Source: Candidatus Saccharimonadia bacterium (GTDB taxonomy: Bacteria > Patescibacteriota > Saccharimonadia > Saccharimonadales > JALRHH01). Taken from it: a stretch of 64,000 nt of DNA. The stretch covers positions 172,020 through 236,019 of the forward strand of contig JALRHH010000001.1 of NCBI GenBank assembly GCA_023253175.1, written 5' to 3'. Every line of letters starts with the position of its first letter. Positions within the stretch are counted from its first letter, which is position 1. Under the pieces are notes generated by a model. The model made no database searches. It saw nothing but the letters and a program-made list of their open reading frames with translations, and was not told where the DNA came from. Of this stretch, positions 2,604 through 50,023 are shown one piece after another. The translations under genes and the position numbers were made by a program.

Positions 2604-3197
2604 ATGCCTTTAGTCCCAACCGTTATTGAATCCGATGGCCGCATGGAGCGCGCTTATGATATTTACTCTCGTTTATTAAAAGACCGAATCATCTTCCTGG
2701 GTGATGGTGTCAACGAGCACACTGCTAACCTTATCGTTGCGCAGCTCTTATTCCTAGACAACCAGGACTCGAAGAAAGACATTTATCTATATATCAACAG
2801 TCCTGGTGGTAGCGTGTATGACGCACTAGCAATTTATGACACGATGAACTTCGTTAAGGCTGATGTGCAAACGGTTGGTATCGGTGTGCAGGCATCTGCA
2901 GCTGCGTTCCTGTTAAGTAGTGGTGCGAAGGGTAAGCGATTCTTACTTCCTAACTCAACAGTGATGATTCACCAGCCAAGTTCTGGTACTCGTGGTAAGG
3001 TCACGGACCAAGAAATCGATCTCAAGGAATCGCTCCGTATCAAGGGGCTCCTTGAAGACATAATGGTCAAGAATACCGGCCAGAAGAAATCACAGATTCA
3101 CGAAGACATGGAGCGTGACCGCTGGATGACCGCCGACGAAGCCAAAAAGTACGGTATCGTTGATGAAATCATTAAGACACTACCGAAGGAAAAATAA
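2604..3197 (+). CDS. clpP: ATP-dependent Clp protease proteolytic subunit
   Basis: 197 aa. [22 protein letters not shown], active-site Ser context ([11 protein letters not shown]) and MIHQP His motif. Confidence 0.95.
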
Positions 3198-12030: not shown

Positions 12031-12066
12031 AAAACCCGCTTCATAACAGAGGCGGGTTTTGTTTGT
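12031..12066 (+). terminator. Intrinsic terminator after rpoC
   Basis: AAAACCCGC (12031-39) / GCGGGTTTT (12052-60) stem, then a T-rich tract. Confidence 0.7.
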
Positions 12067-14167: not shown

Positions 14168-14172
14168 CAATA

Positions 14173-14203
14173 AAGCGCCTGGGCAACCGGGCGCTTTTGC
14201 TTT
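14173..14203 (+). terminator. Intrinsic terminator after rpsG
   Basis: AGCGCCTGG (14174-82) / CCGGGCGCT (14187-95) stem with one G-U pair and a GCAA loop, followed by TTTTGCTTT. Confidence 0.7.
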
Positions 14204-17106: not shown

Positions 17107-17135
17107 AAATAGCGCCAATCCTGGCGCTATTTTTC
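17107..17135 (+). terminator. Intrinsic terminator after fusA
   Basis: Perfect 9-bp stem ATAGCGCCA (17109-17) / TGGCGCTAT (17122-30), ATCC loop, T-run. Confidence 0.75.
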
Positions 17136-18916: not shown

Positions 18917-18945
18917 AAAGACCTCGGTTATCCGGGGTCTTTTTG
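18917..18945 (+). terminator. Intrinsic terminator after tuf
   Basis: AAAGACCTCGG / CCGGGGTCTTT stem (one G-U pair) with a TTAT loop and a T-run. Confidence 0.7.
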
Positions 18946-20232: not shown

Positions 20233-20260
20233 AAAGCCCCGTTTTATTACGGGGCTTTTT
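20233..20260 (+). terminator. Intrinsic terminator directly after rpsJ
   Basis: AAAGCCCCG (20233-41) / CGGGGCTTT (20250-58) stem plus T-run. Confidence 0.75.
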
Positions 20261-40875: not shown

Positions 40876-40907
40876 AAAAACGACCTCTTCATGGGGTCGT
40901 TTTTTTA
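40876..40907 (+). terminator. Intrinsic terminator after rpsI
   Basis: ACGACC / GGTCGT stem followed by T7. Confidence 0.7.
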
Positions 40908-43299: not shown

Positions 43300-44088
43300 A
43301 TGATTAAAAGTGTTGCGATAGTTGGTTTTGGTAGTTTTGGTACGCTTTTGGCCGAGATATTGGCTCCCCACGTAGAAGTACGTGCATTTAGTAGGCGGTC
43401 TATCAATGCAGAAGATATCCCAAGTGGGGTAAGCATGTGTTCTATATCTGAGGCAGCTGCGTGCGATCTGATTATACTTGCTAATGACCTGGCGGGACTT
43501 AAGGCTTCCTGCGAGGCAATAGCACCCTACGTAACATCAAAGACGGTTGTGATGGACGTATGTTCGGTTAAGACAAAGCCAGCAAGAATACTTGAGGCTG
43601 TGCTTAGTGATAAATGCAAACTGCTCTTAACTCATCCACTCTTTGGGCCGCAGTCATATGCTAACAATGGTGGAACAGAGGGTCTTAGGATAGTTTGGCA
43701 TGACCAGATTGGTGGCCCATTTCCTGAGATTGAGGATTTGTTTAGCGAGGTACTTGGTCTTAAAATTTTGAAGATATCCCCGGATGATCATGACAAGGAC
43801 ATGGCCTGGGTGCATGCTCTGACATTCTTTGTGGGCAGAGGGCTCCTAAACTTGGATCCCCCCGAGACTCCACTTGCAACACACTATTATAAGGAGCTAA
43901 TGGACCTTGTGAGCCAAGAAAAGCAGCACAGTTATGAACTTTTCATGACCGTTCAGCAGGGTAATCCATATGCAGATCAGATACGCAAACGTTTTGTTGA
44001 TAGTCTTGAGGCCCTAGAATCTAAAATAGTCACAGGTTCTATATCTGTTAATGATATTGACAAATCTCATCAAACTGCTATAATATAA
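43300..44088 (+). CDS. Prephenate/arogenate dehydrogenase-family protein
   Basis: N-terminal Rossmann VAIVGFGSFG. THPLFGP and HDKDMAWVHALTFFV resemble the TyrA-family HPMFGP / H..A..SHLPH blocks. Confidence 0.6.
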   Translation: MIKSVAIVGFGSFGTLLAEILAPHVEVRAFSRRSINAEDIPSGVSMCSISEAAACDLIILANDLAGLKASCEAIAPYVTSKTVVMDVCSVKTKPARILEAVLSDKCKLLLTHPLFGPQSYANNGGTEGLRIVWHDQIGGPFPEIEDLFSEVLGLKILKISPDDHDKDMAWVHALTFFVGRGLLNLDPPETPLATHYYKELMDLVSQEKQHSYELFMTVQQGNPYADQIRKRFVDSLEALESKIVTGSISVNDIDKSHQTAII

Positions 44089-44092
44089 TTAA

Positions 44093-44377
44093 ATGACAAT
44101 GGAACTATTACAGTGCGGTTCATGTGAAGTCTCACTAAACCCTAATGCCAAAGCAGCAACTGATCGAATGTGCCCAGTTGTTGCCAATAAGACGCTGTCT
44201 GGTCTTGGAAAGCTTGGCATTGACCCAGGGCCACTTACCTCCCGCGGTGAAAGACTTTTTGTCCTAGCTCAGTCTATGGAAGACCCAGCTGTGACCGAAC
44301 TCGCTGAAGAGGCATGTAGTGATCGCCGTATGCAGCTTGCAAATACGAGTAGCGGTTTCAGCTCCGTCGTGTACTAA
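44093..44377 (+). CDS. Hypothetical protein (94 aa)
   Basis: ORF only. No recognisable domain. Confidence 0.4.
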   Translation: MTMELLQCGSCEVSLNPNAKAATDRMCPVVANKTLSGLGKLGIDPGPLTSRGERLFVLAQSMEDPAVTELAEEACSDRRMQLANTSSGFSSVVY

Positions 44378-44403
44378 GTTAAAACTCTCTTTATTACAAT
44401 GGC

Positions 44404-44432
44404 TTGACAACGCTATATATGGTGTGTAATTC
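44404..44432 (+). promoter_or_regulatory. Sigma70-type promoter driving micro-ORF P1
   Basis: TTGACA (44404-09), 17 nt spacer, TAATTC (44427-32). ATG 44441 is 8 nt downstream. Confidence 0.5.
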
Positions 44433-44440
44433 TTAAAACT

Positions 44441-44536
44441 ATGCAACAAATCGCACAAAACATTATTTGCCAAATGCGCTGGTTTTACGTCAAGCACCCT
44501 GCTGTGGCGGTTTGTTCTGTGCATTTGAAGAAATAA
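44441..44536 (+). CDS. Micro-ORF P1, 31 codons (MQQIAQNIICQMRWFYVKHPAVAVCSVHLKK); candidate leader peptide
   Basis: Leaderless geometry. Paralogous to P2 at the peptide N-terminus and in a 17-nt core. Followed by terminator T1. Confidence 0.4.
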   Translation: MQQIAQNIICQMRWFYVKHPAVAVCSVHLKK

Positions 44537-44558
44537 TACATACACCTCGAATTCATTG

Positions 44559-44596
44559 AAAAAACCGCTACCGAAAGACAAGGGAGCGGTTTTTTA
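44559..44596 (+). terminator. Intrinsic terminator T1 (candidate attenuator)
   Basis: AACCGCT (44563-69) / AGCGGTT (44585-91), T6, then AAAT. Confidence 0.7.
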
Positions 44597-44623
44597 AATC
44601 AAAGTAAGAGTAAAGAGAAGGAA

Positions 44624-44836
44624 ATGGAAACTACAACAGAAGAATTAGAAGATTTATCACTATTGATACTGAGATCAAACAACCTACCACTTAGTGAGCT
44701 TGCGTCTGAAAACCTATTCACTGCAGTAACAGAAGGTTTGCTTGTCATTGAGCCAGAGAGTGAAAAGGAAAAGCACGTAGATCAGAGCATCATCGCGGGG
44801 CGAAAAGTGTTGCAGCTTGCAGGAGTTGCGGCATGA
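44624..44836 (+). CDS. Hypothetical acidic protein (70 aa)
   Basis: SD AGAAGGAA. No recognisable domain. Confidence 0.45.
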   Translation: METTTEELEDLSLLILRSNNLPLSELASENLFTAVTEGLLVIEPESEKEKHVDQSIIAGRKVLQLAGVAA

Positions 44837-44919
44837 AACACATTACACAAACCCGTATAGACTATTGGTTTAGCCGACATGTGTGTGGCGGTCTGTTCTG
44901 TATGTTTTTCAATAAGTGA
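44833..44919 (+). CDS. Micro-ORF P2, 28 codons (MKHITQTRIDYWFSRHVCGGLFCMFFNK)
   Basis: ATGA overlap with the preceding stop. AGGAG (44821-25) lies 7 nt upstream. Followed by terminator T2. Confidence 0.45.
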   Translation: MKHITQTRIDYWFSRHVCGGLFCMFFNK

Positions 44920-44937
44920 AAATAATTAACGAAACAA

Positions 44938-44968
44938 TAAACCCGCCACTTAGGAGGCGGGTTTTTTA
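44938..44968 (+). terminator. Intrinsic terminator T2 (candidate attenuator)
   Basis: ACCCGCC (44941-47) / GGCGGGT (44956-62), T6, then AAAT. Confidence 0.7.
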
Positions 44969-44982
44969 AATGTAAGGAGTAC

Positions 44983-45228
44983 ATGATGGAAAGTAATCCA
45001 GGAACAATTTTACAAAGAATGGGCATAGAAATGAGCCCAGATGACCCACGATCAGCAGAGCAAGTGCTCAACGAGATAAATCGAAAACGCATAGAAACAA
45101 ACATTCTAATGGAGCCTGATCCGAGCGTTAGGTCACGAATGGCTGAATTTGCTCTAAGAAACTACCCACTTACATCAGATCAAGGTATAGCTGACGCTTA
45201 CGACAATGTACTCGAAAAGTGTAAGTAA
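44983..45228 (+). CDS. Hypothetical protein (81 aa)
   Basis: SD AAGGAG immediately after the T2 U-tract. No recognisable domain. Confidence 0.45.
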   Translation: MMESNPGTILQRMGIEMSPDDPRSAEQVLNEINRKRIETNILMEPDPSVRSRMAEFALRNYPLTSDQGIADAYDNVLEKCK

Positions 45229-45262
45229 ACTCCCACTTTTCTCCGTTCATCTTGTATAATTC

Positions 45263-46297
45263 ATGATAATGAGTAAACAAGTAATTCTAACAGGCCTGCG
45301 CGCCAATAATGACCTCCATATTGGTAATTACCTGGGGGCAATTATGCCTACGGTTGATATGGCGCGCCAAAAGGCTGACGAGTTCCAGGTTAATCTGTTT
45401 GTACCTGACTTACACAGCTTTACGACACCAATTGACCATTCGCAGCTCCAGGCTGCAATTATGAACAATGTGCGCGTCTATGCTGCAGCCGGACTGCCAA
45501 TAGAGAATAGTAACGTTAATGTATACCGTCAGAGCTATGTATCAGCGCACAGTGAGCTAACATGGATTCTTGATTGTTTTACGGGATTCGGCGAAATGAA
45601 CCGCATGACACAGTTCAAGGACAAATCTGCAAAGCTGAATGAAGACCGCATTAGCCTCGGGCTATTCAATTATCCGGTATTAATGGCTGCTGATATTTTG
45701 TTGTATGATGCTCGTTACGTTCCAGTAGGCGATGATCAGACGCAGCATCTTGAGTTTACGCGTGATATTGCAGTTCGTATGAATAATCAGTTCGGCGAGT
45801 TATTTACTGTACCGAAGGCTGTAAAAGAACAGCATGCTTTCTTCGGCAAGGACCAGGGGCTTCGTATTAAGGACCTGCAGGATCCAAGCAAGAAAATGAG
45901 CAAGTCAGATGAAACCGGTAAAGGTGTTATATTCCTCAGCGGTTCGCCAGATGTTGCCCGTAAAAAGATTATGAGTGCCGTCACCGATGATCTTGCGCTT
46001 GTAAATTATGATCACAAGTCGCAGCCTGGTATTAGCAACCTACTAGATCTGTTAGCACTTACAAGCGGTGTCTCAATCGAAGAAGTAAACACCAAATATA
46101 GCGGTCAGACCATGTACGGGCCACTTAAAAAAGATGTGGCTGATAGTGTCTGCTCATTTCTAGAAGACTTCCAGTCAAAGCTCGCAAAGATCGATGATAA
46201 GGCCTTGATTGCTAAGCTTGAAAGCAGCGAAGCGGCTATGAACACTCAAGCCAACGAAACGCTTTTAAAAGTACAAAAGGCCGTCGGCCTCCGCTAA
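45263..46297 (+). CDS. trpS: Tryptophan--tRNA ligase
   Basis: TG.R....LHIGNYLGA (HIGH-class motif, TrpRS type) and KMSKS. TATAAT at 45255-60 suggests the real start is the in-frame ATG 45269. Confidence 0.93.
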   Translation: MIMSKQVILTGLRANNDLHIGNYLGAIMPTVDMARQKADEFQVNLFVPDLHSFTTPIDHSQLQAAIMNNVRVYAAAGLPIENSNVNVYRQSYVSAHSELTWILDCFTGFGEMNRMTQFKDKSAKLNEDRISLGLFNYPVLMAADILLYDARYVPVGDDQTQHLEFTRDIAVRMNNQFGELFTVPKAVKEQHAFFGKDQGLRIKDLQDPSKKMSKSDETGKGVIFLSGSPDVARKKIMSAVTDDLALVNYDHKSQPGISNLLDLLALTSGVSIEEVNTKYSGQTMYGPLKKDVADSVCSFLEDFQSKLAKIDDKALIAKLESSEAAMNTQANETLLKVQKAVGLR

Positions 46298-49860: not shown

Positions 49861-50023
49861 GTCGCATCCTGCGACCCTGTAACTACATCTATGAAAACAA
49901 GTTTTCATGAGTAGACTGCCTTGAAAAGTGCCACTGGCACTTTTCACCCCAAAGGCTTCCATCGCGTGTTCAATTCTTATTCCGTACCAAACAAAAAGCC
50001 CACCTGATGGTGGGGCTTTTGTT

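Follow-up and report, generated by a model that had tools for sequence, protein, structure and literature searches.

Predicted classical leader-peptide attenuators precede trpS and leuS in Streptomyces, and a pheST example is found in gamma-proteobacteria (PMC1262725). An arrangement of similar outline is described here from a stretch of 64,000 nucleotides of a Candidatus Saccharimonadia bacterium (assembly GCA_023253175.1, contig JALRHH010000001.1, positions 172,020–236,019 of the forward strand; hereafter, the window). Two short open reading frames (ORFs), each followed by an intrinsic terminator, lie in series before trpS, the gene for tryptophanyl-tRNA synthetase (TrpRS). These two units, referred to below as modules 1 and 2, are probably paralogous classical ribosome-mediated leader-peptide transcription attenuators; we put the probability of this reading at about 0.62. 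A two-stage, translation-coupled attenuator at this site had been proposed in the initial annotation of the window. The proposal is supported by synteny, by the apparent translation of the micro-ORFs, by an RNA-constrained core with a pairing partner in all 19 copies compared, by an invariant Trp codon, and, in most relatives, by the coupling of trpS to the small ORF (orf81) that precedes it.

The trpL attenuator of Escherichia coli resembles the modules in its short translated leader with Trp codon(s), its mutually exclusive 1:2, 2:3 and 3:4 helices, a regulatory codon (a candidate one here) that immediately precedes segment 1, and the intrinsic terminator ahead of the structural genes. The modules differ from it in having one Trp codon rather than two or more, in targeting an aminoacyl-tRNA synthetase (aaRS) gene instead of a biosynthetic one, and in standing in series with an ORF between them; moreover, their first leader is apparently leaderless and their second is coupled to the ORF upstream of it. 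The Rfam model Trp_leader (RF00513) scored 18.0 bits against a gathering score of 41, and Phe_leader (RF01859) 23.5 bits against 55, with both alignments carried by the terminator only. With pheST (the pheM leader) and the Streptomyces trpS and leuS attenuators, the modules have in common the class of target gene and the proposed logic, in which a leader peptide includes the codon of the matching amino acid and a terminator stands between it and the aaRS gene. Unlike these, they occur in Saccharimonadales-like bacteria of the candidate phyla radiation (CPR; Patescibacteria), are unrelated in sequence (the comparison being with Phe_leader), are arranged in tandem with a single putative regulatory codon each, and include two extra small ORFs in the operon.

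T-box leaders are the usual means of aaRS control in Firmicutes, and tandem T-boxes are known. They too lie upstream of aaRS genes, involve competition between terminator and antiterminator, and respond to tRNA charging, as is proposed here. The modules are, however, too short for a T-box and lack its Stem I/specifier architecture, and the codon is carried by a translated ORF. With the T-box model (RF00230), the region had no match up to E = 10, the window as a whole had none that reached the gathering level, and five related loci were likewise negative. A related idea, that the terminators mimic tRNA or act in a T-box-like manner, was rejected, as loops containing CCA are present in only 3 of 11 copies and are not conserved.

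The TnaC leader of tnaCAB is likewise short, has Trp followed by Phe, and lets ribosome position decide read-through, as we propose for the modules. TnaC requires W12, D16, I19 and P24, stalls at its stop codon and blocks Rho (PMC10941005), whereas the modules keep only the W (plus F) of these defining residues and have intrinsic rather than Rho-dependent terminators. Module 1 is, in addition, unusually conserved as both RNA and peptide. In this it is reminiscent of the small RNA rnTrpL and the peptide peTrpL of Sinorhizobium, which are dual-function attenuator products; a comparable role in trans is conceivable here.

The tandem modules and their leader ORFs

The genes and signals are arranged in the order promoter, leader ORF 1, terminator 1, orf70, leader ORF 2, terminator 2, orf81 and trpS (Table 1). 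The modules had been described in the initial annotation together with their ORFs, hairpins, ATGA overlap, Shine–Dalgarno (SD) sequences and promoter-like site, and inspection of the sequence found each of these at its position. The 17-nucleotide (nt) core said to be common to both modules (TGGCGGTYTGTTCTGT) indeed occurs exactly twice in the 64 kb, where 0.22 occurrences would be expected even at 3 mismatches. GGTTTTTTAAAT also has exactly two occurrences in the window; its identity in the two copies holds there and is lost in the relatives. A pattern fitted to both window copies (W-F, H, CGGLF) matched those two only, and no shuffled sequence matched it. A covariance model built from module-2 homologues alone picked out module 1 as the only other significant match in the window (33 bits, E 2e-5), so that the modules are paralogous, as had been claimed, and restricted to this locus.

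The two paralogues have RNA rather than peptide in common, since the reading frame through the core differs between them: module 1 yields ..AVAVCSV.. from it and module 2 ..GGLFC... The motif M..I.Q..I, noted earlier as common to both peptides, is present in the window and disappears among the relatives, in which the N-termini of module 2 vary; across copies, W-F is the sole peptide feature common to both leaders. Profile comparison detected no homology between orf70 and orf81, and the unit of leader and ORF was therefore not simply duplicated together with its ORF.

Relatives were collected as contigs encoding orf81-family proteins, to which was added one metagenome locus (L029), the only one returned by a metagenome scan with the orf81 profile. 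The sample comprises 8 distinct module-1 copies and 11 module-2-type copies, 19 in all, and includes an orf81-family member named Candidatus Saccharimonadales. TrpRS of the relatives is 73–95% identical to the window protein, and the fourfold-degenerate sites of trpS are 24–47% identical, which is essentially saturated. In all related contigs reaching far enough, both modules are syntenic, lying between the last upstream gene and orf81-trpS. Two terminators precede trpS in 8 of the 9 lineages for which the whole leader-to-trpS region is available. Homologous modules in related genomes had been named in advance as a check on the proposal; they were found, and some of their base pairs covary. 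The first 200 positions of L029 are GC-rich and unrelated to the remainder, and this contig is probably chimeric, with the join inside its orf70 homologue.

The ninth lineage (L041, positions 2800–3000) has one terminator and a single module with a module-2-type peptide (MKTMRSNQYWFTDTIRGGYFALPA), placed directly before orf81-trpS; module 1 and orf70 are absent. It is preceded by its own module-1-type promoter, TTGACA-17-TATCGT, 7 nt before the leader. Its core, diverged in the 3' half (GGCGGTTACTTTGCT), still matches the terminator arm over 9 bp (AACCGCCAC). This single-module locus speaks for a role of the unit as the leader of trpS and for an origin of the tandem state by duplication or loss. 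A search of 185,579 species representatives with the pattern W-F..H..CGGLF returned 15 chance matches in unrelated phyla, each of them either within a long ORF or not accompanied by the module; true relatives would not fit this pattern either.

The ATG, frame and length (29–31 codons) of leader ORF 1 are kept in all 8 genomes, and the single indel is of 3 nt and preserves the frame. Invariant positions number 10 of 30 at third codon positions and 37 of 60 at first and second positions. The closer relatives encode the peptide MQQIAQNIICxMRWFYGKxxAVAVCSVHLK and the most distant MKQTVTNFVCAMRWFYIKQDVAVCYVRTQ; the block C-x-M-R-W-F-Y-x-K is invariant in the 8 copies, and the Trp-Phe codons are always at ORF nucleotides 40–45. 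All 11 module-2 leaders are open and in frame. Their N-terminal sequences are unrelated between genomes and vary in length only in multiples of 3 (Trp codon at nt 27–78), and the conserved part is the C-terminal stretch of ~16 residues, YWFT(D/G)...GGLF..F. In the 10 tandem loci the start of leader 2 overlaps, abuts or falls 1–4 nt past the orf70 stop, behind an SD-like purine run. A single in-frame UGG is invariant in 19 of 19 leaders, always before a Phe codon and flanked by Tyr. By this comparative signature, both micro-ORFs look translated.

All 9 promoter-bearing copies have TTGACA 30–32 nt before the ATG, and none of them has an SD sequence. Given this spacing, transcription would start at or within ~3 nt of the leader 1 ATG, and the leader 1 mRNA is apparently leaderless or nearly so. 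The TAATTC of leader 1 ends 8 nt before the ATG and is a weak -10 element that a consensus scan does not call. The same sigma-70 scan called no + strand site from 44100 to 45260, and hence none between the terminators and the next ORFs, in agreement with the earlier remark that neither terminator is separated from the following SD by a canonical -35/-10 pair.

At the distal end of the region, the SD of orf81 lies a few nt after terminator 2 and orf81 itself begins 9–22 nt past the T-run. In 7 of 9 loci the end of orf81 and the beginning of trpS overlap by 8–14 nt; judging from this layout, trpS is translationally coupled to orf81 in most relatives. Transcription of trpS in these loci therefore passes one or two terminators.

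RNA structure and the proposed switch

Module 1 of the relatives is 68–91% identical in nucleotide sequence to the window, versus the 24–47% seen at trpS fourfold sites, and module 2 is 50–70% identical from the Trp codon to the terminator. A non-coding stretch of module 1 (TCGAATTCATTGAAAAAACCGCTACC) is almost invariant in six genomes. The conserved core has the consensus N-UGGCGGUYUGUUCUGU; in core 1, 15 of 17 nt are invariant over the 8 genomes and both changes occur in L039/L042. By this comparison the modules are constrained as RNA beyond coding needs.

Of all the upstream RNA, the core offers the terminator 5' arm its best pairing partner in each of the 19 copies, with the pairing starting between -3 and +1 nt of the core. 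The pairings first described for the window, GUGGCGGUUU with AAACCGCUAC at 44562–71 and GUGGCGG with CCGCCAC at 44943–49, were both recovered. The free energy of the core/arm duplex is -13 to -24 kcal/mol, which is similar to or more favourable than the -11 to -19.5 kcal/mol of the terminators. At most 2 of 300 shuffles reached the observed core/arm energy in 12 copies, and 4–19 of 300 did so in the other 7, all of module-2 type. The leader terminators, which are GC-rich hairpins followed by T4–T7 in 19 of 19 copies and have the features of Rho-independent terminators, are shaped like the operon-end terminators elsewhere in the window. The stems of the latter, at 7 sites, all differ from the CCGC(C/T) stems of the leader terminators, and the core/arm complementarity is for this reason not generic to terminators.

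Sequence changes in the relatives follow the pairing. Where the core has GGUUU, in module 1 and L041, the arm has AAACC; where it has GGUCU, in module 2 of L029 and L039, the arm has AGACC. In L039/L042 a GUG-to-GUA change turns a G-U pair into A-U, and a change of the flank to GCAAACC adds a G-C pair. The first ten core bases of L042 (GUAGCGGUUU) exactly repeat the terminator 3' arm, and 12 of 13 bases match overall. On the module-1 alignment the extended antiterminator is 89% paired, versus 31–45% in slid controls, and includes 2 compensatory pairs. For an RNA that ends short of the terminator 3' arm, the minimum free energy (MFE) fold is antiterminator 1. An antiterminator helix that uses the terminator 5' arm, as expected of an attenuator, is accordingly predicted.

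In every one of the 19 copies, a hairpin that would sequester the core starts 2–3 nt after the Trp-Phe codons, or 5–6 nt when counted from the U of UGG. In local hairpin 1 the 3' strand covers the first 3–6 nt of the core; 94% of the alignment cells are paired, versus 26–60% in slid controls, with one GC-to-UA compensatory pair and five pairs showing wobble-compatible one-sided changes. Local hairpin 2 is 89.6% paired in 11 copies, and its innermost pair covaries (UA 5, CG 3, UG 1). The distance from UGG to the core is 19 nt in module 2 and 21–24 nt in module 1, and the leader stop codon lies 23–35 nt after the core start and 11–27 nt before the terminator. A sequestering 1:2 helix of suitable geometry is thus present, as judged against the textbook ribosome footprint (~+12 nt from the A site). 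Module 1 alone has a second sequestering helix, formed by nt 5–14 with the core, which is 98.8% paired in 8 copies and shows one-sided changes only. In terminator 2 of the relatives the outer stem pairs covary and the inner CCGCC, which is also the partner of the core, is fixed. Segments pairing with several partners are frozen in known attenuators too (PMC1262725), as is to be expected of a segment obliged to do so.

In the proposed mechanism, segment 1 would be the stretch beginning 2–3 nt after the in-frame UGG-UUY, segment 2 the conserved core, segment 3 the terminator 5' arm with its 5' flank, and segment 4 the terminator 3' arm with the U-run. When a ribosome runs on to the stop codon, or when there is no translation, hairpin 1:2 would form (behind the ribosome, where there is one), leaving the core unavailable, so that 3:4 folds and transcription stops; in module 1 the helix between the RNA 5' end and the core would form as well. 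When charged tRNA-Trp is scarce, the ribosome would stall with UGG in its A site and cover ~12 nt downstream, including segment 1. The core, ~19–24 nt downstream, would remain free to pair with segment 3 once this is made, and with the terminator blocked RNA polymerase would continue into orf70 (module 1) or orf81-trpS (module 2). Translation of leader 1 could begin as soon as the 5' end emerges, and leader 2 would be loaded by ribosomes finishing orf70. TrpRS activity would in this way be under homeostatic feedback, and the effects of the two stages would multiply. We infer that termination and read-through do occur at these sites, that the ribosome is the sensor and, from the one codon per leader and the presence of trpS downstream, that Trp-tRNA is the signal.

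Several observations weigh against this scheme. Classical trp leaders carry two or more Trp codons and each leader here has only one, so that Trp specificity rests on one invariant codon and on which gene lies downstream. The sample is small (8 and 11 sequences) and its members are related, which keeps the covariation statistics modest, and the core itself hardly varies. With a mask for a ribosome at the Trp codon, the equilibrium MFE structure changes to the antiterminator only in module 1 of the window, the terminator staying lowest in the 7 further copies folded in this manner; the switch would therefore have to be kinetic. The 5'-end helix of module 1, which a Trp-stalled ribosome leaves uncovered, could compete with the antiterminator. 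The module-1 peptide (C-x-MRWFY-x-K) is more conserved than a passive carrier of a codon needs to be. Finally, the window and L027 encode a longer orf81 product followed by a 40-nt spacer before trpS, a situation found in these two genomes only, and there a TATAAT (window 45255–45271) or TATACT (L027 ~715–735) stands 8 nt before the trpS ATG; this -10 element could be an additional leaderless trpS promoter that bypasses the attenuators.

Alternative explanations

The leader peptides could conceivably do more than present a codon. The MRWFY and YWFT(D/G) blocks might serve as nascent-chain sensors of a metabolite or of aromatic amino-acid status, and/or the leader-1 RNA and peptide might act in trans; we consider this unlikely. 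In the trans-acting variant, an abundant terminated leader-1 RNA of ~155 nt and its 30-residue peptide could function like rnTrpL and peTrpL. Were such a sensor or trans-acting role real, it would provide a genome-reduced episymbiont with a compact multi-output sensor of host-supplied tryptophan.

A closely related explanation is that of an arrest peptide, in which residues of the W-F region stall the ribosome through the exit tunnel in response to a small molecule, for example free Trp, as TnaC does, and the stalled ribosome sets the same terminator/antiterminator switch. The invariance of C-x-M-R-W-F-Y-x-K in the 8 module-1 copies fits this explanation, as does module 2, whose conservation is limited to the C-terminal ~16 residues behind a free N-terminus, a distribution typical of arrest peptides. 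E. coli TnaC contains K-W-F, and its W12 is essential (PMC10941005). Counterparts of TnaC D16, I19 and P24 are nevertheless absent, with no Asp at W+4, and the spacing from W to the last residue is 13–17, versus 12 in TnaC. The final residue differs between copies and is in no case Pro; the one Pro near the C-terminus is that of L041, two residues before the end. The conserved C-terminal parts, furthermore, are the same nucleotides in different frames, which argues for conservation of RNA and not of peptide, and W-F is all that the two leaders have in common. A ribosome stalled at the stop codon would in any case leave hairpin 1:2 free, a geometry with no regulatory output. Taken together, we regard an arrest-peptide sensor as decidedly improbable.

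A switch that operates independently of translation would make the ORFs incidental, with the leaders being riboswitch-like or bound by a protein or tRNA. Among its variants are feedback from TrpRS or from a protein encoded by orf70 or orf81, and a minimal T-box-like sensor of tRNA-Trp using UGG and UGGC. The strong nucleotide conservation, which extends to third codon positions, and the sharing of the core among three mutually exclusive helices would suit such a switch. So would the association of orf70 with module 1 and of orf81 with module 2 (a racemase gene intervening in L042), with both module 1 and orf70 missing from L041, and sequence reasoning indicates that the core UGGC is complementary to a GCCA acceptor end. 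That UGGC is, however, fully paired in the antiterminator and not bulged. The modules measure only ~100–120 nt from start to terminator (144 nt in one copy); T-box leaders are longer than this. Rfam searches of the region at permissive thresholds (E=10), of the whole window and of the five related loci yielded terminator-driven noise and no family match, T-box included, and orf81 has no recognisable RNA-binding fold. Such a switch has most difficulty with the ORF signature: the start context, the frame-preserving indels in an N-terminus that is otherwise unconstrained, the UGG in frame in 19 of 19 leaders and the placement of the stop codon are hard to explain without translation. This explanation, too, appears to us a poor candidate.

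The terminators might instead be constitutive and partial, acting as insulators behind small translated ORFs, with the complementarity of core and arm merely inherited from one duplicated unit. The short T-runs (4–7 T) make leaky termination plausible, the equilibrium folds mostly keep the terminator, and the features common to the modules are, as these are paralogous, not independent. Left unexplained would be the mutual complementarity of the core, the hairpin following W-F and the terminator flank at a divergence where neutral sites are saturated, the register-shifted and compensatory changes in the diverged L029, L039, L041 and L042, and the placement of an essential gene behind two terminators in 8 of 9 lineages and behind one in L041. 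We accordingly give insulators little credence.

The weakest explanation, in which the units are independent micropeptide genes with their own terminators, encoding a bacteriocin-like, ribosomally synthesized and post-translationally modified peptide-like or toxin-like CGGLFC family with copy 1 frameshifted, draws on the window alone, where copy 1 read in the frame of copy 2 gives PCCGGLFCAF versus VCGGLFCMF, and is hardly tenable, because the ..AVAVCSV.. frame is kept in all 8 module-1 genomes (module 1 is thus no frameshifted pseudogene), the other frame of module 1 in relatives reads RGGLFC, the module-2 Cys positions vary (C/R/H/N/D at the first, C/Y/R/A at the second), the neighbours of the modules include no modification, export or immunity genes, nucleotide conservation exceeds the coding requirement, and the degenerate peptide pattern, which was over-fitted to the window copies, gave chance matches only; the suggestion of such a family in the initial annotation is thereby rejected.

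Genomic setting and significance

The positions of all elements are collected in Table 1. The genes neighbouring the modules are rsmB/F, trpS, a rluD-like and a holB-like gene, and no other aaRS gene that could carry an analogous leader was found within the window.

Table 1. Sequence features of the trpS leader region, in window coordinates
Feature	Position	Strand	Support or remark
Promoter of leader 1: TTGACA 44404–09, 17-nt spacer, TAATTC 44427–32	44404..44432	+	sequence
Leader ORF 1, 31 codons, MQQIAQNIICQMRWFYVKHPAVAVCSVHLKK	44441..44536	+	frame kept in 8 genomes
5'-proximal strand AACAAAUCGC, pairing partner of core 44507–44516	44445..44454	+	RNAalifold consensus
In-frame UGG-UUY (Trp-Phe) codons of leader 1, proposed stall site	44480..44485	+	8/8 copies
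Local hairpin 1 (anti-antiterminator)	44485..44509	+	predicted in 8/8 copies
Core 1, GTGGCGGTTTGTTCTGT plus GCATTTGA, 5' strand of antiterminator	44504..44528	+	
3' strand of antiterminator 1, TCGAATTCATTGAAAAAACCGCTAC, overlapping terminator 5' arm	44547..44571	+	
Intrinsic terminator 1: A-tract, interrupted 13-bp stem, T6	44559..44595	+	-15.4 kcal/mol; kept in 8/8 copies
70-aa ORF (orf70), SD-led (AAGGA), starting 27 nt past T-run of terminator 1	44624..44836	+	
Leader ORF 2, 28 codons, MKHITQTRIDYWFSRHVCGGLFCMFFNK, ATGA overlap with orf70 stop	44833..44919	+	
In-frame UGG-UUU (Trp-Phe) codons of leader 2	44866..44871	+	11/11 copies
Local hairpin 2, GCCGaCAU/GUGgCGGU, sequestering 5' part of core 2	44873..44892	+	
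Core 2, GTGGCGGTCTGTTCTGT, translated as ..GGLFC..	44885..44901	+	
Intrinsic terminator 2, AAACCCGCC / GGCGGGTTT + T-run (hairpin 44939–44964, T6)	44939..44967	+	
81-aa ORF (orf81), preceded by AAGGAG, likely start 44986	44983..45228	+	
trpS, tryptophanyl-tRNA synthetase, housekeeping gene 3' of both terminators	45269..46297	+	PF00579, E 7e-58

Alignment places orf70 homologues at the same position in 10 loci, always in the company of module 1. The orf81 family is narrow: of 5.8 billion proteins 23 belong to it, and of 1.84 billion representatives only 3 clusters matched at E ≤ 1e-10. Neither protein has a Pfam match. An AlphaFold2 model of orf81 is helical, with four helices and a pLDDT (predicted local distance difference test) score of 80, and its comparison with the PDB returned no fold match. 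Both orf70 and orf81 are real small proteins. The N-terminal part of the orf81 profile, covering ~35 residues (44983–45090), weakly matched (E 1e-4 to 1e-6) stretches that recur within very large proteins, among them a 6679-residue protein with 10 such stretches and a 775-residue caspase-domain protein with 6, which suggests that the orf81 N-terminus is a short repeat-like helical motif. In L042 an Asp/Glu-racemase-family gene (2249–2903) is inserted between the module-2 terminator and orf81 and so comes under the same leader; it is called as two overlapping ORFs (83 and 138 residues) and is perhaps frameshifted.

Upstream of module 1, a perfect sigma-70 consensus promoter (TTGACA, 16-nt spacer with TG, TATAAT; 12/12) is located at 44057–44093 within the 3' end of a tyrA-like gene. 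It ends 8 nt before the ATG at 44093 of a Cys-containing ORF of 94 residues that has no Pfam match and is apparently leaderless. The tyrA-like gene and the 94-residue ORF are absent from L020, L021, L024 and L026, where rsmB/F directly precedes module 1. The operon-end terminators of the window, at 12032–12059, 14172–14197, 17107–17132, 18917–18942, 20233–20258, 40878–40902 and 49995–50019, are symmetric AAA-stem-loop-stem-TTT hairpins that are terminator-like on both strands.

Saccharibacteria and other CPR bacteria have tiny genomes, lack amino-acid synthesis and possess few recognisable regulators. To our knowledge, almost nothing has been established about the way in which these bacteria monitor the nutrients that their hosts supply, and we know of no classical leader-peptide attenuation described so far in the Saccharibacteria group. 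The alignment of the modules and the covariance model could seed a new RNA family. If the attenuator reading is true, orf70 and orf81 would be flagged as small conserved proteins co-regulated with TrpRS, and the design would be unusual in placing two attenuators in series, the first with a leaderless leader ORF and the second with a leader coupled to an upstream ORF. A leader-peptide attenuator before trpS would then constitute a concrete, testable cis-regulatory device in CPR bacteria, by which the state of charged tRNA-Trp is reported via the ribosome.

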